This document shows positions 5,754-62,617 of a stretch of DNA of 64,000 bases, in pieces. The notes below the pieces were generated by a model. It was not told the DNA's origin and searched no databases. It saw only the letters and a list, made by a program, of their open reading frames with translations. The stretch is from NCBI GenBank assembly GCA_047601445.1, contig JASGJH010000001.1, positions 4,320,001 to 4,384,000 of the forward strand, written 5' to 3'. Each line of letters begins with the position of its first letter. Positions within the stretch are counted from its first letter, which is position 1. The translations under genes and the position numbers were made by a program. This DNA comes from Myxococcales bacterium. Lineage in GTDB: Bacteria > Myxococcota_A > Polyangia > Polyangiales > DASUME01.

Positions 5754-7644
5754 TCAACGTCCGAGCTTGAAGCTCGCGCTGCCCTTGGCTTCGGCCTTGA
5801 CGGTGGGCGCCTTGATTCTCAGGTCCCTTGAGCTTGACGCCCGCTCGAGCCTTGCCCTGCCCCTTGGCATCGCCGGCAGCGGCTGCCAGCGCTTTACCGT
5901 TGGCCTCGAGCTTGGCGTCCGCGTCGAGCTTGGCCTTGGCCTTGGCCTCCAGCTTCGCCTTGGGGCCATGCAGGTCGAGCGCATGATGTGCATCCACGCC
6001 AGGCGTACCAATCACGGCAGCGGCGTCGAGTTCGGGCGCGTCCACATTCCAGCTCGCGCGCGCTTCCGCCGCCGCCTGGAGGTTCGGCGGATTCACGTGG
6101 ATGGCATGACCGAGTTGAAGGCCCCACTTGGCGTCGAGTTCGCCCCGTGCACGCGGCGGCTTCACGGCGAATACGGTCGCTAGCCTACCCTTCACTTCGG
6201 CGCCCAGGATGGCCTTGGCTGCGAGCTTCGGAGGGCGCATATAGAAGGCCACCTTGCCGCGCGGCGGGGCCACGTTGGCGCTGGCCTTGGCCTGCCAGTC
6301 CAGGCTCGGAGCGCCGATCCAAAGGGCGCGCGCCGAGGCCGTGAACTTGGGGGTCGGCGGCGTGAAGAACTTGAACTTGAGCTTGGCGTCGAGATCCGCG
6401 CTCGGAACGGCAGGCGGCGTGACCTTCGCATAGAACTCCGGCACCACCACGCCCACGAACGTCGCGTTCATCCGCCCGCGGGGATGGTGCAGGTAGTACG
6501 AAAAGCGCAGGGGCTCGAAGTAGGCACTGGCGACGAGATCGAAACGCTTGGGCCAGAGTACGGCGGCCTGCACGCGCGGCTCCACCTTGGCCCAGGCTTC
6601 GACGTCCGGATGGCGCACGTACAGGTCACCTGCCAACACGGCGTGCGATAGATAGGCCTGGCTCAAGTATTCCAGGCGCAGTGCGGTCAGGTACGACGCC
6701 TCGAGGTCGAGCGCCGCCTCCGGCAGGGTTGCTTCGTAGTGGGGAGTCGCGTTCGCTTGGGCATCGGCTGCAGCGGTCGTCTCGAACTTGGCGAGTGGTG
6801 CGCTCAGGTTACCGACCACGCCGTAGCTGGCCTCGAGCTCCGACGCGAGCTTCGCCATGGCATCTCCGTGAAGGGCGATGGTGGCATCCGCATTGAGACC
6901 CGCTTCGGCCTGGTCGCGCCATGCTCCCCAGTTGTCCTCGCGGAATGCCACCGGAGCGGCCAGGGTGCCGGCCCCCTCGAGAGCCACCGCGTGGTTGGCT
7001 TCGAGTGTGATGGGAGCATTGAGGGCGGCCGCTCCGGCCACGGACAACGCGCCCTCTTCCACACCGACGCGAGCGTCGCCATCCGCCGCGACACCGACGC
7101 CGAACACCGTGCCCTTGGTGGCGACGATGCCTGCCGACGTGAACACCACAAAGGGTCCTTCTCCGGGCATACGAGGCGTGACGCTGAAGCGAGCCACTCC
7201 ACCTAGCACGGCGGCCGACGAGGCCGGATCGGCCGTGCTCACGCGACTTCCGATCGAAAGGGTGGAGACTTCGGCGATCTCCGCGGTGCTCTGATCCGCG
7301 AACAACACCGTCGCACGCGCGTGGTCGCCTACCCGCACTTGGTCGCCGAGATAGAGCGCCTGATGGGGCTTCGCCGCGCCGAACGCTTCCTCTCCCAATC
7401 GCCGCACCTCCACGGAGCCATCGACCCCTGCGAGAACGGCCAGGGCTCCTTCCGAGTGTTGGATGCCGCCCGCTTCGATGCCGACTTGTGACACCAGCGC
7501 CGACGCGGCCGCAGCGGCCATCACGTCGTTGGTTGGAGCTTCGGCGCCAGCGCGCGTTGCGGCGTCGTCACCGCATCCGCAGAGAGCTGCCGAGGCTGCG
7601 ACCATCGTCGTCAACATGGTTTGCAATGGGGCTTTGGTTCTCAT
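5754..7644 (-). CDS. FecR-domain lipoprotein with Ala/Lys-rich C-terminal tail (probable frameshift ~5820)
   Basis: Lipobox-like AALCGC and FecR motifs (LYLGDQVRVG, ATKGTVFGV, VGVEEGAL). The tail IKAPTVKAEAKGSASFKLGR continues in another frame to the stop at 5754; the unshifted ORF ends at 5728. Confidence 0.75.
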
Positions 7645-7897: not shown

Positions 7898-8362
7898 ATG
7901 TCCTCCAACAGCACGTACACGATCCGAAGGCTCGTCGCTCGCGATACGGAGCTCGTGCACGGAATGCTCACCATGTTCGGCGAGGCCTTCGAAGACGTGG
8001 AGAGCTACGGAAAGGCCCGCCCGAGCGCGGCATACCTGGACCGGCTGCTGGCTGGAGAGTCGTTCATGGCGCTGGTGGCCTTGAAGGACGACGAGGTCGT
8101 GGGCGGGCTCGCCGCCTATGAGCTACGCAAGTTCGAGCAGGAGCGCAGCGAGATCTACATCTACGACCTGGCAGTCGCGGCTCCTCATCGGCGACAGGGC
8201 ATCGCCGAGACGTTGATCCGTGAGCTGGGCAAGCTCGCAAGGGATCGCGGTGCCTACGTGGTGTTCGTCCAGGCCGACCTCATCGATGCTCCTGCCATCG
8301 CGCTGTACACGAAGCTCGGCACCCGCGAGGACGTGCTCCATTTCGATTTGCGGGTGGTCTAG
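7898..8362 (+). CDS. AAC(3)-I family aminoglycoside 3-N-acetyltransferase (GNAT)
   Basis: Family-typical motifs MFGEAFED..SY...PS..YL..LL, GGLAAYELRKFEQERSEIYIYDLAV...HRRQGIA and VQAD..DAPAIALYTKLG.REDVLHFD. Confidence 0.85.
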   Translation: MSSNSTYTIRRLVARDTELVHGMLTMFGEAFEDVESYGKARPSAAYLDRLLAGESFMALVALKDDEVVGGLAAYELRKFEQERSEIYIYDLAVAAPHRRQGIAETLIRELGKLARDRGAYVVFVQADLIDAPAIALYTKLGTREDVLHFDLRVV

Positions 8363-52921: not shown

Positions 52922-54184
52922 ATGACAGATCTGACGGAGTTCCTGGATTTGCTCGCAGGTGATCCCCGGCTGCGCTCGGAGTTCGCCGCGGCACCGGCCG
53001 CGACACTCGCGCGCGCTGGTGTGAACACCGAAGGGCTCGAGCTTCCAGAACGCATGGATCTCGGGGATCTGGAAGAGCGCCTGAGCACGCTCGCTGAGGT
53101 TAGCGAAACCAGCCCGGTTGTCGCCGCAGCGTCGAGCGGCTTGCACACGCCGGTCTGGTCGGGCGCCGCCGCAGAGACAGCAGTTCCCGAAGCCTCACGG
53201 CGCCGGTTGCGCCGCGGGCGGCCGCTTCCTGGCATACATTGTCCGTCAAGACTCGAGAGCCGCCGTGAGGACGACTCGCGGGAGGCCGACGGTTCCTCCA
53301 ACCGTGGTGTCTCTCCTTTCAGGGGCGACGGTGAGGTCAAGAATCACCGCGCGGACGCCGGCCGAAAGCCATCAAAGGTCGAGAAGACTGCGGTCACCGA
53401 GGCGACGCCGTCGCTCAAGGGCGCATCGGAGGCCCCCCTGCCGGGCGCGTGGTTCGCGACGAACGGCACCGCGATCAGTCGCGCGCTCAGCATTCGTCCG
53501 CAGGGAGTCTCGATGGTGTCCGAGGCAATCTTCGGTCAGGACGATCGGCAGCACGTCCCCGATGCTTCAGCGCCACCCTACAGCTGGTTGTGCGCGCTCG
53601 TGATCACCGCTGGCAATGGTACCCGCTGGTTCGGCACCGGCTGGCTCGCAGGGCCGCGGCTCGTCGTCACTGCCGGACATTGTGTCTTCATGCCGACGCA
53701 GGGTGGGTGGGCTCGCGAGATCACGGTTCTGCCGGGTAGAAATGGCGCTTTGACCGAGCCGCGTATCCGCGCAAGCCAGTTTCACTCCGTGGAAGGCTGG
53801 GTAGTCAATGGACGGTCCGAGGTCGACTACGGAGCCATCGTACTGCCCGAGGGCTCGCTCGCGGCTGACTGGGGCTACTTCGGCTACGGCGCGCTCGACG
53901 ATGGCGAGCTGCTTGAGTCGCTTTTCAACATAGCCGGATATCCGATCGACAAGGAGCAGGGAACGCTGTGGGCTCAGGTCAACAATCTTCTGACGCTTTC
54001 AGGGGAAGTACTGATCTACGAGAATGACACCTACGGCGGCATGAGCGGATGTCCCGTCATTCGGTGGGACGAGTTGGACTACGTAGCTGTCGGAATCCAC
54101 AACTACGGTGACCTCGTAGGCAACCGCGCAACACGCATCAATCAATCCGTCTTCGACAACATCAATTTCTGGAAGACCTTGTGA
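52922..54184 (+). CDS. V8-like glutamyl endopeptidase (S1B) with an N-terminal NHLP-leader-like domain
   Basis: Catalytic TAGHC / DYG / DTYGGMSG; VGIH; mature-type start E-AIFGQDDR. N-terminus FLDLLAGDPRLRSEFAAAPAATLARAGV. No signal peptide. Confidence 0.85.
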   Translation: MTDLTEFLDLLAGDPRLRSEFAAAPAATLARAGVNTEGLELPERMDLGDLEERLSTLAEVSETSPVVAAASSGLHTPVWSGAAAETAVPEASRRRLRRGRPLPGIHCPSRLESRREDDSREADGSSNRGVSPFRGDGEVKNHRADAGRKPSKVEKTAVTEATPSLKGASEAPLPGAWFATNGTAISRALSIRPQGVSMVSEAIFGQDDRQHVPDASAPPYSWLCALVITAGNGTRWFGTGWLAGPRLVVTAGHCVFMPTQGGWAREITVLPGRNGALTEPRIRASQFHSVEGWVVNGRSEVDYGAIVLPEGSLAADWGYFGYGALDDGELLESLFNIAGYPIDKEQGTLWAQVNNLLTLSGEVLIYENDTYGGMSGCPVIRWDELDYVAVGIHNYGDLVGNRATRINQSVFDNINFWKTL

Positions 54185-54197
54185 CAAGGAGCGGCCT

Positions 54198-55040
54198 GTG
54201 AACATTTACATTTGGGATGACGACACCACCGCAACCTCCACGCCCGAAGCTGGCTCGCTCAAAGCCACGCCCAACAGCGCGATGGCGACTGTCGCAGGCA
54301 CGATCGCCCGCCCAGGAGGGAGCGCAGCGTTCCTCGACATCCACTACCACGGAAAGGAAGGCATCTCCTCGCTGCCCTCGGCCACTGGTGCGGTCGCACG
54401 CCCGGGAGGCAGCGCGGCGTTCCTCGACATCCACTACCACGGAAAGGAAGGCATCTCCTCGCTGCCTGCGGCTGCGGCACGCCCAGAGGCCGGCGCAGCA
54501 GTCTCTGCCAGCAGCCTGGGCCGCGCAGCGGTCGCTGCACCGATACGCCCGGGAGGCAGCGCGGCGTTCCTCGACATCCACTACCACGGAAAGGAAGGCA
54601 TCTCCTCGCTGCCCTCGGCCACTGGTGCGGTCGCACGCCCGGGAGGCAGCGCGGCGTTCCTCGACATCCACTACCACGGAAAGGAAGGCATCTCCTCGCT
54701 GCCTGCGGCTACGGCACGCCCAGAGGCCGGCGCAGCAGTCTCTGCCAGCAGCCTGGGCCGCGCAGCGGTCGCTGCACCGACACGCCCGGGAGGCAGCGCG
54801 GCGTTCCTCGACATCCACTACCACGGAAAGGAAGGCATCTCCTCGCTGCCCTCGGCCACTGGTGCGGTCGCACGCCCGGGAGGCAGCGCGGCGTTCCTCG
54901 ACATCCACTACCACGGAAAGGAAGGCATCTCCTCGCTGCCTGCGGCTACGGCACGCCCAGAGGCCGGCGCGGACACCGGTGAGCCGTCCTCCGGCTCGCT
55001 ACACATCGGCGCGTCCCTCGACATTCATTTCGTGGGTTGA
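54198..55040 (+). CDS. Putative multicore RiPP precursor peptide (6 x RPGGSAAFLDIHYHGKEGISSLP)
   Basis: RBS AAGGAG at 54186-54191, GTG start 13 nt after the protease stop, stop overlapping the next gene (TTGA). Sits between the protease and three radical-SAM genes. Confidence 0.8.
   Translation: MNIYIWDDDTTATSTPEAGSLKATPNSAMATVAGTIARPGGSAAFLDIHYHGKEGISSLPSATGAVARPGGSAAFLDIHYHGKEGISSLPAAAARPEAGAAVSASSLGRAAVAAPIRPGGSAAFLDIHYHGKEGISSLPSATGAVARPGGSAAFLDIHYHGKEGISSLPAATARPEAGAAVSASSLGRAAVAAPTRPGGSAAFLDIHYHGKEGISSLPSATGAVARPGGSAAFLDIHYHGKEGISSLPAATARPEAGADTGEPSSGSLHIGASLDIHFVG
54309..54970 (+). repeat. Higher-order tandem repeat: 237-bp unit x ~2.8, each with two 69-bp cores
   Basis: Cores start at 54309, 54399, 54546, 54636, 54783 and 54873 (alternating 90/147-bp spacing) and are near-identical at DNA level. 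Confidence 0.95.
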
Positions 55041-57046
55041 TCGTGGCGGCGCCGACGATTGCGCTCGTCAGCATGCCGTTCAATGTCACCGTCATGCCGC
55101 CGATCGGGCTTGGAACCCTTAGCGCAATATTGCGTGAGGCTGGCCTGCCCTGCACGACATATCACCAGAACCTCGAGCTGCTACCGTGGCTTGGGGTGCC
55201 TCTCAATGAGGCTTCGGAGATCTTTGATGAGATCAGCTATCTGTGGGACTTCTTGCCTGGAGAATGGCTATTCTCGCCGCAGGTCTCGGCTGAACAGGAC
55301 GCCGCATACCTGCGGTCGCTCGACGAGGACGCCGGCGTGCGCCCGCAGCTCATCGAAGTTCTTGCCCAGCTGCGCAGGATCGCTCCGCATTTCATCGCGC
55401 GCTGCGCAAGCCAGATCGCTGACGCTGGGCATGACATCGTCGGCTTCACGAGCTCATTCATGCAGACCCAGCCGAGCCTCGCAGTGGCCCGGCACCTCAA
55501 GCAGCTGCGGCCGGAAGTAACGATCCTCTTTGGCGGCTCCAATGCCTTTGGGACCATGGGCCGCGCCGTGCTCGAATACTGCGATGCCATCGATGTGGTC
55601 GCCCACGGTGAAGCCGACCGCCTAATCGTCCCACTTGTGCACGCCTTGCGCGAAGGCACCAGCCTGCGGCAGCTACAAGGCATCTCCTATCGCGACGTCT
55701 CGGGCATCGTCGACCAGTCCGTCGACTCGACGCGCGTGGCGATGGACGACCTACCGGTCCCTGATTTCGATGACTACTTTTGCACTCTCGATCGGCTACG
55801 GAGAGACCATCGCCAGCCGCTGGATCTCCCGCGCTTCGTGCCCATCGAGACCGCACGCGGATGCTGGTGGGGCGAACGATCGCATTGCACCTTCTGCGGC
55901 CTCAACGCTGACCGCATGCGGTTCCGATCCAAATCGCCCGAGCGTGCGCTGCATGACTTCCGCGACCTCTACCGTCGATACGGGGTCGGCAACTTTTTCG
56001 CTGTCGACAACATCATTGATCACAAGTATTTCGACACTGTCCTCGCGAGTCTCGCCGAACAGCGTGAGCGCTTCTTCATCCACTACGAGATCAAGGCAAA
56101 CCTCTCGCGCAAGCAGGTCGAGTCGCTGTACGCAGCAGGGGTTCACAAGATCCAGCCGGGAATCGAGAGCCTGTCCACACCGGTGCTCAAGCTCATGCGC
56201 AAGGGTATCACTGCCCTGCAGAACATCCAGACGCTCCGCTGGCTCACGGAGCACGGCCTGCGGACCTCCTGGTACATGCTGTATGGCTTCCCCGGCGAGA
56301 ATCTAGCCGCGTACAAGGAGGTCGCGAATCTCCTGCCGCGCCTCACGCATATCGTACCGCCAAATGAGCTAGCGCCGGTCTACATCGAGCGCTTCAGCCC
56401 ATACCAGATGAGACCAGACCAGTACGGGATCCGGCTGACCGGTCCGGCGCGGTGGTATCGGCATGCCTTCCCCGGCATCGGTGACGATCAGCTCGCCGAG
56501 TTAGCCTATCGCTTTGAATACGAGGAGCCGGGCCGTGATCCCGCGCTCACCCGCTTCATCGAGCACGAGCTGCGGCCATTGCTGACCGCGTGGCAACGGC
56601 GCTACGCCGCTGAAGGGCCCACACTTGGCGTCATCCACGGCCCCGAAGAGTCGCTGCTGGTGCTAGGCCGCCTCACAAATCCGATTCGGGTGTTGCGGCT
56701 GGACGCACCCGTCGCTGCGGTGCTGCGGGCAGCGGATCAAATCGTCTCCGCAACGACGCTCGACAAACTCGGCGACGGCCCGGTCGGCGCAGTTAACGGT
56801 CCGATGCTTGACGAGGCTGACTACCATGTCGCGGTGCGGCGTCTCGCCGGCCGGGGCTTGTCCCTGGAAACGTCGACGCCAACGCCACTAGACCTGCGAG
56901 GCGCGGCACTGGTAGCGAAACTTGAGACACTAGGGCTTGTGTTGCAAGAGGGTAACCGAGTGCTGTCGCTTCCAATCAATTTGTCCCGCGTCGTCGAGCG
57001 CCAGAACGCGGCCGCGGTGCCGTTGGTGTCCAGTGCTGCCTACTAG
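55037..57046 (+). CDS. RiPP maturation radical-SAM C-methyltransferase (B12-dependent, class B) #1
   Basis: LVSMPF...PPIGLGTL, GEWLFS, VGFTSSFMQ, ETARGCWWGERSHCTFCGLN (CX7CX2C), IQPGIESLS. Confidence 0.92.
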   Translation: MIVAAPTIALVSMPFNVTVMPPIGLGTLSAILREAGLPCTTYHQNLELLPWLGVPLNEASEIFDEISYLWDFLPGEWLFSPQVSAEQDAAYLRSLDEDAGVRPQLIEVLAQLRRIAPHFIARCASQIADAGHDIVGFTSSFMQTQPSLAVARHLKQLRPEVTILFGGSNAFGTMGRAVLEYCDAIDVVAHGEADRLIVPLVHALREGTSLRQLQGISYRDVSGIVDQSVDSTRVAMDDLPVPDFDDYFCTLDRLRRDHRQPLDLPRFVPIETARGCWWGERSHCTFCGLNADRMRFRSKSPERALHDFRDLYRRYGVGNFFAVDNIIDHKYFDTVLASLAEQRERFFIHYEIKANLSRKQVESLYAAGVHKIQPGIESLSTPVLKLMRKGITALQNIQTLRWLTEHGLRTSWYMLYGFPGENLAAYKEVANLLPRLTHIVPPNELAPVYIERFSPYQMRPDQYGIRLTGPARWYRHAFPGIGDDQLAELAYRFEYEEPGRDPALTRFIEHELRPLLTAWQRRYAAEGPTLGVIHGPEESLLVLGRLTNPIRVLRLDAPVAAVLRAADQIVSATTLDKLGDGPVGAVNGPMLDEADYHVAVRRLAGRGLSLETSTPTPLDLRGAALVAKLETLGLVLQEGNRVLSLPINLSRVVERQNAAAVPLVSSAAY

Positions 57047-59006
57047 TGCCCATAGCCTGCGGGTCGCGCTGGTCGAGATGCCGTTCGGGCCCGTGGCATG
57101 GCCGTCGATAGGCACCTCGGTACTCAAGCCGCAGCTGGCGCGGCGCGGCCACCGCGCCGAAGTTGTGTACCTCAACCAACTCATGCTCGAGCTCCTTGGG
57201 CCGCCGGACTCGGACACGGTTGGGCGATACCAGGCTATCTCAGACGCGTTCGGTGTTCATCTCGGCGAGTGGGTATTCGCCCGTGCCGCGTTCCCCGACT
57301 GCCGAGACCAGGCGGCACTCGATGACGAGTACCTCTCGCGGCTACGGACCGGCGGTTTCGATGCGGCGACGTTGTCGGCAGCCCTCGACCTTCGCGACCG
57401 CGCTGATGAGTTTCTGACCCGATGCCTTGCCGAAGTGCCGTGGTCCGACCTCGACGTAGTCGGCTTTGCCAACTCCTACTCTCAGCTCAACGCATCGCTA
57501 GCGCTCGCGCGACTGCTGAGCATGAGCTTCCCCGCGCTGCGCCTCATCATCGGCGGCTGCGGCTGCGCCGACGTCATGGGTGTGGCCACGTTGCGCGTAT
57601 GCGAGCACCTGTGCGCCGCAGTGCTGGGCGAAGGCGACGAGATCATCGCCGACCTCGCGGAGGCGGTCGTCAGCAACGACGAGGCGCGACTGCGCGCGAT
57701 ACCGGGCATCGCGTTTCGAAGTCACACCGGCAAGATTGAGCTCGGTGCACCTCAACGCCGCGTCACGGATCTCGACGCGCTCCCGGTGCCCGACTATAGC
57801 GATTACAGCCGCAATCTTGCGCCCGCACTCCGAACGTTCCTGCCTTTCTACATTCCCGTCGAGGCATCGCGCGGCTGCTGGTGGGGTGCGAAGCACCATT
57901 GCACATTTTGCGGACTCAACCCGCAGCGCATCTCCTACGCGCGTAAGGAACCGGCCCGTTTTCTCGCCGAGATCGCGACGCTTACGGCAACCTACCAGCC
58001 GCGCCGCTTTATGGCAGTCGACAACATCATGCCGCACGACTACCACACCGCGGTCATCCCAGAGCTGACTGAAAGCTCTGGAGGAGCCGAGTTCTTCTTC
58101 GAAGTGAAAGCCAACTTTCGCCGCGAGCAGCTCGAGGCTTTCACCCGCGCCAACGTGCGACAGATCCAACCCGGCATCGAAAGCCTGCGCACCCCGGTGC
58201 TGAAGCTGATGGAAAAGGGCACGACGGCGATCGCCAACGTCTACACGCTGCGTTTGTGCGAAGACCTCGGTGTGCGTGCCCACTGGTCTATCCTCTTCGG
58301 CTTCGCTGGCGAGACCCTCGACGACTACCGTGTCTCGAGTGAGCTCACCAGGCGCATTATGCATCTGCGGCCGCCGCTGGCGCTGGTGCCGGTTGAAGTC
58401 GAGCGCTTCTCACCGATGTACCGACGACCCGCCGAGCATGGGCTCACCGGTCTACGCCCCTCGACTTGGTACTACTTCTGTCACCCCGTCTCAGCGGAGG
58501 TGCTGGCAGACTTATCCTATCGCTTCGTCGCCGACTTCGTCGGCCGTCCGGCAGAGCTATCAAGCTCCATTACTACGATGCTGGAGCCGCTCGTAGAGCG
58601 TTGGCGAGCAAGCTACGGCGACGGTGCCCAGGCCCTGTGGACGCCGGCCGGGCGGAACCACGAGGTACGGCGCCGGGTCGGTGGCGAGGAATGGCGTTAC
58701 ATTCTCGACACGGTGTGTACGGCGCTGCTCGATGAACTGGACGAGCCGCGCGGCCTACGCGCCCTTTTCCCCCAAGCCGCGACCACCCTTCACGAACCGT
58801 ATCTCGATCCCGAGTTTCTGCGTACGGCCTCGTCAGCGATGTACGAGCGCGAGGTCACTCTGCGCGCCTCTTCGAAGGTTGACGCATACCAGCAGCTCCT
58901 ACGTCACGGACTGATCGTCCAGGAAAGCGGCCACGCGGTTAGTGTCGTTTGCCGGCGGAAGCCCTCTGCGCGGCGCGAGCTGCGCGTGCTCGCCGCAGAA
59001 CCGTAA
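57033..59006 (+). CDS. RiPP maturation radical-SAM C-methyltransferase (B12-dependent, class B) #2
   Basis: LVEMPF...PSIGTSVLK, GEWVFA, EASRGCWWGAKHHCTFCGLN (CX7CX2C), IQPGIESL. GTG start at 57033 inferred from overlap with the previous stop. Confidence 0.92.
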   Translation: MLPTSAHSLRVALVEMPFGPVAWPSIGTSVLKPQLARRGHRAEVVYLNQLMLELLGPPDSDTVGRYQAISDAFGVHLGEWVFARAAFPDCRDQAALDDEYLSRLRTGGFDAATLSAALDLRDRADEFLTRCLAEVPWSDLDVVGFANSYSQLNASLALARLLSMSFPALRLIIGGCGCADVMGVATLRVCEHLCAAVLGEGDEIIADLAEAVVSNDEARLRAIPGIAFRSHTGKIELGAPQRRVTDLDALPVPDYSDYSRNLAPALRTFLPFYIPVEASRGCWWGAKHHCTFCGLNPQRISYARKEPARFLAEIATLTATYQPRRFMAVDNIMPHDYHTAVIPELTESSGGAEFFFEVKANFRREQLEAFTRANVRQIQPGIESLRTPVLKLMEKGTTAIANVYTLRLCEDLGVRAHWSILFGFAGETLDDYRVSSELTRRIMHLRPPLALVPVEVERFSPMYRRPAEHGLTGLRPSTWYYFCHPVSAEVLADLSYRFVADFVGRPAELSSSITTMLEPLVERWRASYGDGAQALWTPAGRNHEVRRRVGGEEWRYILDTVCTALLDELDEPRGLRALFPQAATTLHEPYLDPEFLRTASSAMYEREVTLRASSKVDAYQQLLRHGLIVQESGHAVSVVCRRKPSARRELRVLAAEP

Positions 59007-60163: not shown

Positions 60164-62617
60164 CTAGGCCCTGCGCGCTGTCGCAATCCATTGCGTGGCG
60201 TGCGGGGTCGAACCGTCGGTACACGTTGAGGCCAGCTCCTCGCGGACGCGGTAGCCACGGCGGAGCCATCGGATACTGCCGTGAAGGTATTGTCGCACGA
60301 GCGTGTGAAGAGGCTCTTCAGCCCGAGGTCGACTTCGCCTCAGCTCCACCTGCTGAAAGCCAGCGCTTTCGAGCATGCTGCGGAGAGCCCCGCTAGTCAT
60401 CCCCATCGTCTTGGTCTTCACAGACTCGCCGCAGGCTTCATAAATGGCAGCATAGGCAGGGCTGTCTTGTGTCCAGACCCCTACGACCAGCCTACCCGAT
60501 GGCTCGAGAAGGTCGTGGAGCCGTGCAAGCGCCGTCCCGGCGTGCTCGCCAAGGTGTTGGATCAGGTGCTGCGCAAAGATCACGTCGTAGCGCTGCGCGG
60601 CTTGGACCTTGAGGACGTCGTTGACAGCGTACTCAATTTTGCGAGCGCCCCTGACCTCGTGCGCAACTCGAATGGCGTCGCGACTCGAATCGAATCCGTG
60701 GATTGCAGCGGAGCGGAATTTGTCAGCTGCGACGCGTGCAACGATGCCGGAACCGCAGCCCGCGTCCAAGATATATCGGGGCTTGGAGAGGTCGGAGCAA
60801 GCGTTCAACAGCTCCCTAGCGCACGGCAGGAACAGCGACTGTACCAGGCCGGCCTCCAGGTTGCGCTCCTTCACGAGCATGCTCGCGCGGTCGCGGTGTG
60901 CGCGTTGGCGCAGCACCGTGGCGAGCGCTTCGTTTCCCGCCAGTAGTTTGGCCGTTCCTTTCAGTTGGCTTTTCGCCTGCGCACCCTTAAGCAGAGACGA
61001 GAGTGCTCGAGGCTCGGTCCTATCGCCGTTGCTCAGCCTGACTTCGACGTGGTAGTCGTCCCAGGTGAAAAGCGACACGCGAAACGGCTGCTTCTTCTCG
61101 TGGCCGCGAAGAGCACGTCGCAGGAGCTGATAGCCCGAAGAACTCCTACGCCAGTACGTGACTTCGTCGACATCATCGGGTGCGTCCGCGATCCAGAGCT
61201 TGAGCTCGCGGCAGTAAAGTCTTGCCCCATTGTGCGAGCAATCGTCGACTACCCCTCCAGCCTCGACCACGATTCGGAACGAACCAGCGGGAGCAGGAGG
61301 AATTGCCTTGTGAGCCGCCCCGGTAATTGCCTCAGCCGCTTCAGGTCGCAGGCGTTCCGACTCGAGGTCGGCCGCCCCAGCCTGGCGTTGAAGCAGCGCG
61401 CTATGCAGCTTCGGAGAATGCTTCGCAAGAGGGCTCTCACCGCCCGTGCGGCAAACTACGCGGTGAAAGGCACGCGGTATCCCTTCACCGCGGAACGTAA
61501 CGAGATAGAGCGGCCCCTCCCGTCGTGTCTGGTCGAGGAGCACCACGTGATCGGGCTCTCCCTGCTCATAGCGAAACCGGCCCCCGCTGACGCGAAGCAC
61601 CCTCCAGGCGAGGAGGCGATGCAGCGGTTGCGTCCGAAAGGACATGGGGTTGGGGGAGCGTCCACGCCAGGTCACATCGATGCCTGGCCGCAGGTTACTC
61701 TCGAGAAACTCATCCAGATCCTTCCACGACGTCTTGAGCAACCCGTACTTCTCGAAAACCAACGCGGAGCGGTCGAGGCTATGGTGTTCGTTGCCTCCTG
61801 CCTCGGCCACCTTCCATTCGAGATCCACAATCGTTGTTCTCACCGGCTCGAGAATCGAGCAGGCGTGGTCAAGGAAGGGCCCGTGATCGAAGTTGACCAA
61901 CGTCGCCCGCAAGAAGTCCACGGCGCCCCCGTCTCCATCGCCACAGATCAACAGCTTTGTATGCTTGTCCAAGGTCTCGAGCGGATGCTGCGCCAACGCG
62001 TCCATCTGCCAGTAGGACAGGCGTGGCAGCGTGGGCAAGGTGCGCTCGATTCCGAATCCGAGCGCGAGCACCACCACTTCAGGCGGTTTCGGATACTTGC
62101 CGCCAGTGAGGCCCACGAGCTCGACTTTGCCGTCCCGTGTCAGGCGAAAGTCGGTGATCTGCCGCGGCATCGCGCCCATGAGTGCTTCGTACTGCGTGAC
62201 AATCTGCGTGCGTACGTCGTGGGCGCTTCCCGCGAACCAGTTCAGGATCGGCAGGTTCGCCGAAGCCATCGTACTATGCTCCGCGGGCCATTCGACGATG
62301 CGAGGATGCAGGAATCGATGGTGGCAACCTAGCTGCAGGTGCATCGGCTCAGCCGCGCGATCGAACACCTCGACCTTGGCACCAAGCACGCGAAGAGCAG
62401 CAGCACAGGTCAACCCACCAGCACCGGATCCAATGACCCATGCGCGCTTGCCCTCGACTAACTTGGCTTCATGGAGTGCCCAGACCAGATTGAGAGCGCG
62501 GCATTGCTGCGCCGCGACATTGATGCGCGGGCGGCGCTCGCTAAAGAGGACAAAGACGTTGTCACATCCATCCACCGAGGCTTCCTGCCTGAGCCGCTCG
62601 CTGTCGCTGTCCATCAT
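60164..62617 (-). CDS. FAD/NAD(P)-binding oxidoreductase fused to a pYEATS-like domain and a class I SAM methyltransferase
   Basis: QQCRALNL, VIGSGAGG, LALGFG, CGDGDGG; middle DEVTY...FTWDDYHVEV; C-terminal ILDAGCGSG. Confidence 0.7.
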   Translation of the reverse strand: MMDSDSERLRQEASVDGCDNVFVLFSERRPRINVAAQQCRALNLVWALHEAKLVEGKRAWVIGSGAGGLTCAAALRVLGAKVEVFDRAAEPMHLQLGCHHRFLHPRIVEWPAEHSTMASANLPILNWFAGSAHDVRTQIVTQYEALMGAMPRQITDFRLTRDGKVELVGLTGGKYPKPPEVVVLALGFGIERTLPTLPRLSYWQMDALAQHPLETLDKHTKLLICGDGDGGAVDFLRATLVNFDHGPFLDHACSILEPVRTTIVDLEWKVAEAGGNEHHSLDRSALVFEKYGLLKTSWKDLDEFLESNLRPGIDVTWRGRSPNPMSFRTQPLHRLLAWRVLRVSGGRFRYEQGEPDHVVLLDQTRREGPLYLVTFRGEGIPRAFHRVVCRTGGESPLAKHSPKLHSALLQRQAGAADLESERLRPEAAEAITGAAHKAIPPAPAGSFRIVVEAGGVVDDCSHNGARLYCRELKLWIADAPDDVDEVTYWRRSSSGYQLLRRALRGHEKKQPFRVSLFTWDDYHVEVRLSNGDRTEPRALSSLLKGAQAKSQLKGTAKLLAGNEALATVLRQRAHRDRASMLVKERNLEAGLVQSLFLPCARELLNACSDLSKPRYILDAGCGSGIVARVAADKFRSAAIHGFDSSRDAIRVAHEVRGARKIEYAVNDVLKVQAAQRYDVIFAQHLIQHLGEHAGTALARLHDLLEPSGRLVVGVWTQDSPAYAAIYEACGESVKTKTMGMTSGALRSMLESAGFQQVELRRSRPRAEEPLHTLVRQYLHGSIRWLRRGYRVREELASTCTDGSTPHATQWIATARRA

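Follow-up and report, generated by a model that had tools for sequence, protein, structure and literature searches.

A V8-like protease at the head of a multicore RiPP cassette carries an N-terminal domain homologous to NHLP-clan leaders

We analyzed 64,000 nucleotides of a Myxococcales genome (contig JASGJH010000001.1, positions 4,320,001 to 4,384,000; hereafter the window), in which a V8-like protease is the first of five closely packed genes on the same strand. The N-terminal domain of this protease is homologous to the leaders of the NHLP clan, with which it shares a D-x3-R-x2-F-x3-P-x3-L-x3-G module, the window copy scoring below the curated cut-offs. Its nearest relatives are the split-borosin SonA leader, Os1348, and TIGR04509. 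The domain is not a strict NHLP and lies outside TIGR03793, the borosins, and the proteusins. The features of the cassette and its surroundings are as follows.

52922-54184, + strand: V8-like protease open reading frame, 420 aa, ATG at 52922, first gene of the five-gene cassette
52922..53101, + strand: leader-like domain of the NHLP clan, aa 1-60; predicted helices at residues 4-13, 15-23, and 25-31, extended at 32-46, helix at 47-59
53102..53524, + strand: protease linker and propeptide, variable and of low complexity, pLDDT<50 over most of its length
53525..54184, + strand: V8-like (glutamyl) serine protease domain, residues 202-420, starting at codon 202
54198..55040, + strand: multicore precursor (P0002), 280 aa; the unit AAFLDIHYHGKE repeated identically six times, an LDIHFVG variant at the C-terminus, and a short MxIxx N-terminus
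55037..57046, + strand: B12-dependent rSAM C-methyltransferase 1 (P0003); TIGR03975 at 546.7 bits, cut-off 281.85
56549-57043, + strand: C-terminal domain of methyltransferase 1, DUF5825/RRE-like at family level
57033..59006, + strand: B12-dependent rSAM C-methyltransferase 2, a paralogue of methyltransferase 1; TIGR03975 at 471.8 bits
59021..60079, + strand: radical SAM enzyme (P0005), nearest to YydG-type peptide epimerases; TIGR04078 at 102 bits, below the cut-off of 300
60164-62617, − strand: 817-aa fusion, FAD/NAD-binding in its N-terminal region and a class I methyltransferase at its C-terminus, in convergent orientation to the cassette and with no sign of membership in it

The start of methyltransferase 2 at 57033 was placed by its overlap with the upstream stop. 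The two cassette methyltransferases form sister cassette-specific clades (support 1.0 and 1.0; together 0.971). By sequence, the third rSAM enzyme may be a peptide epimerase; the PoyD-type epimerase family TIGR04517 was absent among the best 25 of 55 families for P0005. Profile scans found no borosin methyltransferase among the five cassette genes, and a promoter and terminator scan returned nothing above chance.

The precursor has a 237-bp repeat period (window 54309-54970) with two core units per period, 2.8 copies, and a 98% match, and its repeat has therefore expanded recently. We found 12 precursor homologues, 11 of which repeat DIHYHG-type units and one of which repeats DINYG. All open with a short, unstructured M-x-I segment, and those with DIHYHG units close with a conserved tail. 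No folded leader was seen in any of the 12, by profile scan for those inside loci and by eye for the rest. Likewise, no clan model matched the window precursor in profile scans, which bears out the claim of the preliminary description that the leader-like module sits on the protease and not on the precursor. Each HYHGK of the window precursor is immediately followed by a Glu, and the homologues have their next acidic residue 5-12 positions past the Asp. This spacing would fit cutting by a Glu/Asp protease.

The protease begins as previously described, with the ATG at 52922, a linker, and a mature domain from codon 202 (53525). A trypsin fold is indicated by a Pfam Trypsin_2 match (E 0.0015), and many homologues are named glutamyl endopeptidase. 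The triad H253, D302, and S375, together with T370 and H393, is invariant in 12 of 12 aligned sequences. We take T370 and H393 to occupy the positions that set Glu specificity in the V8 family, and cleavage after Glu/Asp is the predicted specificity. The propeptide contains short conserved motifs near P103 and at A176-R187, which are also found in domain-less proteases of the same clade. E201 (53522-53524), the last residue before the mature domain, is invariant as well, including in the domain-less clade proteases. V8-family zymogens self-activate after a Glu, and by analogy E201 is the probable self-activation site. No signal peptide was apparent in the clade proteases inspected. In the family alignment, linker identity is 9-35% and domain identity 29-67%; in conservation, the domain comes close to the catalytic domain, with six positions invariant in 12 sequences. 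Because it stayed conserved while the adjoining linker drifted, we consider the domain to be under selection.

Over its 60 residues, the window domain matched TIGR04509 (E 8e-5, 22.6 bits, below the cut-off of 34), the IniB N-terminus (E 2.6e-4), and Nif11 (E 0.048), the latter two also below cut-off, and had no match to TIGR03793 (cut-off 50.9 bits) at E<=1. TIGR03793 was matched by 5 of the 12 domain family members, with a best E of 0.0036. The clan profiles most often matched by the family were TIGR04509 (9/12) and Os1348 (7/12), with a best clan E of 1.6e-7, and a PDB search with the 12-sequence family profile placed SonA first (E 4.6e-5, residues 1-38). The leader pattern proposed in the preliminary description fits with Leu at its [FL] position (DPRLRSEF...P...L...G), but what the domain matches is the NHLP clan at large rather than TIGR03793 itself. 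The similarity to NHLP-type leaders on which that proposal depended exceeds chance and is thus present at the level of clan homology.

The predicted fold points the same way. In a fold search with the domain model (pLDDT 85), clan members took ranks 1, 2, 4, 15, and 20, with SonA best, Os1348 second, MprE7 (8TB1) at rank 4, and DprE2 (9CJX) at rank 15. Foldseek gave no match at E<=0.001, though SonA chains were at ranks 2-7 and 9, and Atlas feature scores for the domain (0.81-0.82) were at chance level. The conserved module spans residues 1-58 and is predicted to form three helices plus one, and the model includes the N-terminal trihelical bundle (alpha1-alpha3) that is a feature of NHLP leaders. 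Such leaders also have beta1/beta2 strands behind the bundle (PMC12537861, available portion) and a Gly-Gly cleavage site followed by the core (PMC2887384, available portion). Neither model has a strand or a beta-hairpin over residues 1-60, and Gly-Gly is absent within residues 49-70 in 12 of 12 proteases. In all 12, position 45 is hydrophobic (M/L/I/Y) and L50 invariant (M45-x4-L50 in the window, at 53054-53071), a spacing that may correspond to the L(X)4L motif near the end of NHLP leaders but is modeled partly as helix. This motif region was aligned to ELSDAEL by hmmsearch but not by hhalign, and it has diverged in the three alphaproteobacterial domain copies.

We then placed the protease among its relatives, examining 160 loci (the best 80 of 263 and the best 80 of 226 matches) and counting domain presence by HMM. 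In a tree of catalytic domains (n=261), the 14 domain-bearing proteases all belong to a single clade of 31 members (FastTree 0.996), which IQ-TREE separates from the ten nearest outgroups at 100/100. Among the 160 best-match loci, a RiPP gene lies directly downstream at 10 of 10 clade loci (8 distinct): a precursor and/or methyltransferase at 8 and a class III LanKC at 2 (L019, L099). At the 150 non-clade V8 loci, 82 of them with at least 3 kb downstream, there was no precursor, methyltransferase, third rSAM enzyme, or LanKC. The domain was found at none of these 150 loci (136 with the 5' frame end inside the contig). As far as examined, V8 proteases away from RiPP clusters therefore do not commonly carry the domain; a wide occurrence there would have spoken against the preliminary description.

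Three Rhodobacterales genomes have these five genes in identical order and with the domain: a Pseudophaeobacter MAG (L018 = L022 = L100), Yoonia sp. R78084 (L101), and Rhodobacter maris (L102). The five genes also occur in that order, without the domain, on metagenome contig L023 (partial copy L024). In every cassette, the multicore precursor is directly downstream of the protease. Four of the five distinct complete rSAM cassettes keep the domain. No other ORF of at least 150 aa is common to these four cassette loci, and there is therefore no conserved transporter. Gene context is known for 4 of the 14 domain-bearing proteases, and 3 of these 4 come from related genomes. No further cassette was found among 61 relatives searched with P0003 or on plasmids and viral contigs, and 401 Yoonia-family genomes yielded the two known cassettes, two catalytic-domain-only matches, and nothing further. 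A search of 401 genomes from the class of the window with the domain profile gave 10 weak matches, spread over 9 other genomes, and no V8 protease was among the proteins matched. In that class, a clan-like helical module heads an unrelated protein of ~270 aa (L274:1180-2295 and L276:1324-2298; weak, E 4e-5 and 4e-4).

In L023/L024, the protease frame is closed by an upstream stop with no domain match, and the precursor and three rSAM genes are intact. The precursor, methyltransferases, and third rSAM enzyme are 59-65% identical to those of the alphaproteobacterial cassettes, and the protease groups as sister of the three domain-bearing proteases from alphaproteobacteria (100/100). A decayed domain remnant upstream of this protease was considered and rejected (-1.4 bits against shuffles up to 2.6). 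The sequences of L023 and L024 part immediately upstream of the protease, which suggests that the domain-less cassette is mobile. Its neighbors at L024:285-844 and 1238-1438 look by eye like what we take to be a toxin-antitoxin pair and an integrase fragment.

The protease beside LanKC in L099 is complete and also lacks the domain. P0035 lacks it too; its contig has the same length (15,136) as that of P0128, a DIHYHG precursor, which is no more than a hint that the two belong together. The P0020 sequence starts within the fourth helix of the domain. Monophyly of the domain-bearing proteases was rejected (p-AU 1.2e-5), with the qualification that some domain-less rows may be 5'-truncated. The simplest reading is an ancestral domain with repeated loss, although the inner branches have weak support and truncation of this kind may affect several domain-less proteins.

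Other members of the clade sit beside different RiPP genes. In Nonomuraea angiospora (L099:1376-6050) and in L019, a clade protease lies directly upstream of a class III LanKC, and in L099 a repeat-containing putative precursor follows the LanKC. This suggests that the V8 clade serves multicore RiPPs of several classes. A second precursor type, with repeated AAFLDINYGK units, lies behind a clade protease at L020:843-1454 and L021:733-1140 and is represented by P0139; in L021 it is followed by a methyltransferase 1 orthologue, and the L020 and L021 contigs end before the protease N-terminus.

A folded leader is not a general need of TIGR03975 enzymes, because few of the TIGR03975 loci screened showed a clan precursor and the clavusporin leader is short. 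We examined 80 of 575 other TIGR03975 matches, drawn from 10 of the 64 parts into which the collection is divided. A V8 protease was seen at none of these loci, and a clan precursor lay within 10 kb at 3 of the 80 (L180, L224, L253). The screen was a crude regex that gave 6 candidates in 5 loci; four candidates were then scanned, which confirmed clan-type precursors at those three loci. A free-standing precursor beside the TIGR03975 gene of L253 aligns with the profile of the protease domain through the motif region (hhalign covers residues 18-41 only). That locus holds a TIGR03793 NHLP precursor (6024-6464, − strand) and a short Nif11-like precursor resembling the protease domain (8044-8361, + strand). 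At L280:3-968 (− strand), a clan-type leader is followed by many AAIYASxP repeats, making a multicore precursor that keeps a folded leader. The clavusporin methyltransferase, as described in the available part of 10.1101/2024.01.23.576971, works with a leader of ~17 residues rather than a folded domain.

The cassette methyltransferases may carry an RRE-like C-terminal domain, judging from family-level sequence comparison. Across the methyltransferase family, the C-terminal domains matched PqqD in 9/91 and DUF5825 in 8/91, with none of the ten cassette rows among these. The Atlas DUF5825 score for the C-terminal region was 0.92. The family profile matched RRE proteins in the PDB weakly (E 0.04-0.9; TfuB1 E 0.04, PqqD E 0.1), and the window methyltransferase 1 domain had no Pfam match at E<=0.1. 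In NHLP leaders, helix 1 and L(X)4L engage an RRE, L(X)4L binding as a strand (PMC12455567, available portion), and the trihelical bundle engages LanM (PMC12537861, in the same limited portion as above).

Among known systems, the split borosins (SonA/SonM; types V-VIII; BBD-GNAT fusion) are closest, the borosin-binding/LigA domain of SonA being the best sequence and fold match. In both cases, a mobile clan module is found on a precursor or an enzyme; the accessible text of 10.1101/2024.01.09.574750 describes a borosin binding domain that moved from precursor to methyltransferase, was fused to a GNAT, or was lost in Legionellales. Unlike in borosins, the cassette has no borosin N-methyltransferase, and a serine protease carries the module, with rSAM enzymes as its partners; in place of the five-helix bundle, four helices are predicted, and ~40 residues (1-42) align to SonA. 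As in proteusins, a trihelical N-terminal bundle is predicted and the cluster encodes B12 rSAM C-methyltransferases; the M45-x4-L50 spacing may correspond to the L(X)4L motif, and the third rSAM enzyme is epimerase-like. Unlike in proteusins, the window domain has no TIGR03793 match, predicted beta-hairpin, Gly-Gly, or core behind it, the precursor is multicore and without an NHLP leader, and the protease is V8-like, not C39 or C1A (PMC10885120, available portion). The clavusporin cluster (mpc: MpcB B12-rSAM, MpcC DUF5825, MpcP protease) likewise pairs a B12 rSAM C-methyltransferase and a DUF5825-like region with a cluster-encoded site-specific protease. There, however, MpcA is a 39-mer with a single core and short leader, and the protease is an S9 peptidase (10.1101/2024.01.23.576971, available part), whereas our cassette has two full methyltransferases, a third rSAM enzyme, a multicore precursor, and a V8-like protease. 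Os1348 and TIGR04509 are free-standing precursors of 60-90 aa, whereas here a module of the same clan is fused to a 420-aa zymogen. The protease resembles V8/glutamyl endopeptidases in its catalytic triad, Thr/His determinants, and propeptide ending in Glu, but differs from other V8 proteases in forming a separate clade beside RiPP genes with no apparent signal peptide.

The explanation we lean toward, tentatively, is that the domain is an accessory tag for docking, through which the pro-protease would be tethered to the RRE-like C-terminal domain predicted for the B12 rSAM methyltransferases. With binding, protease specificity, and pathway product as predicted, the precursor would be recognized via its own short motifs (the MxIHxxG start, the repeated (F/L)DIHYHG, and the conserved C-terminal tail), C-methylated and possibly epimerized, and then cut after Glu/Asp between units. 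The domain would dock the pro-protease on the methyltransferases and couple cutting to modification in the cytoplasm, and the tag would be shed when the zymogen self-cleaves at E201. Against docking stand the intact L023/L024 cassette without a detectable domain, the missing Pfam match and weak PDB RRE matches of the methyltransferase C-terminal domain, the diverged motif region of the three alphaproteobacterial copies, and the few known contexts (4/14, three from related genomes). Moreover, L47-L59 is modeled as helix, whereas L(X)4L binds an RRE as a strand. A less probable but serious alternative is that the domain serves the protease itself, through zymogen dimerization, keeping a cytoplasmic Glu-protease off, or precursor binding, with no rSAM contact. 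Os1348, which ranked second in the fold search, assembles into a homodimer via hydrophobic contacts between helices (PMC7726476, available portion), clan-like domains also head other proteins (IniB; L274/L276), the lack of an obvious signal peptide means that intracellular control would matter, and loss of the domain from several lineages is compatible with an accessory control element. However, the complete clade member beside a non-rSAM enzyme (L099, LanKC) lacks the domain and 4 of 5 rSAM cassettes keep it, and the propeptide motifs and E201, common to domain-less clade proteases, are better candidates for zymogen control.

The preliminary description proposed a leader acting in trans. Clan homology in sequence and predicted fold agrees with this, but its obligatory form is weakened by L023/L024 and the 3/80 loci and is unlikely, because L023/L024 and L099 lack the domain. 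We regard as improbable, though worth stating, a natural split leader, in which the folded leader moved from precursor to protease propeptide and would switch on the methyltransferases in trans for a leaderless multicore substrate. It is just as improbable that release at self-cleavage sets an order of "modify first, cut later" and that domain-less cassettes are derived, with constitutive enzymes. The absence of a folded leader from the 12 precursor homologues (by profile scan for those in loci) favors a split leader, as do the failure to find another clan leader in the window's genome, where controls gave no signal in the same search, and the need of the clavusporin methyltransferase pair for its leader for full activity (10.1101/2024.01.23.576971, available part). 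That same leader is short and not folded, the precursor has its own conserved terminal motifs, clan precursors are scarce at TIGR03975 loci (by the crude screen), and L023/L024 keeps its precursor, both methyltransferases, and third rSAM enzyme without the domain, all of which argue the other way. The preliminary description also raised the pro-region as a modified substrate, which found little support since the linker is not conserved. In its fuller form, the protease N-terminus would be leader, core, and enzyme, as in type 0 borosins with their order of binding domain, core, and enzyme (10.1101/2024.01.09.574750, accessible text), and the rSAM enzymes would modify the linker. Although RiPP cores are hypervariable (PMC2887384, available portion) and low linker identity is compatible with this, every cassette has a dedicated multicore precursor immediately behind the protease and the linker has no DIHYHG-like unit, repeat, or Gly-Gly, and we give the idea little credence. 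We give still less to a fusion relic, in which the protease gene would have absorbed an old precursor gene whose leader no longer has a role. The patchy distribution, with domain-bearing proteases not one clade (p-AU 1.2e-5, some rows possibly 5'-truncated), would suit a relic, but a domain that is nearly as conserved as the catalytic domain, with six invariant positions in 12 sequences beside a drifting linker, would not.

In the literature searched, mostly without subscription journals, we found neither a clan domain fused to a protease nor a DIHYHG/DINYG cassette, and no description of the RiPP-associated V8-like protease clade with its conserved multicore cassette. Fig. S5 of the borosin preprint (10.1101/2024.01.09.574750, accessible text) lists unusual fusions and could bear on the protease fusion. 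Because the cassette occurs naturally both with the domain (window, L018, L101, L102) and lacking it (L023), the role of the domain can be put directly to the test. If the domain docks on the methyltransferases, a leader fold would have found a second use as a tag between enzymes, and the borosin pattern would reach into rSAM pathways and proteases. Such a tag would then be a transferable means of recruiting a protease or of modifying substrates without a long leader.
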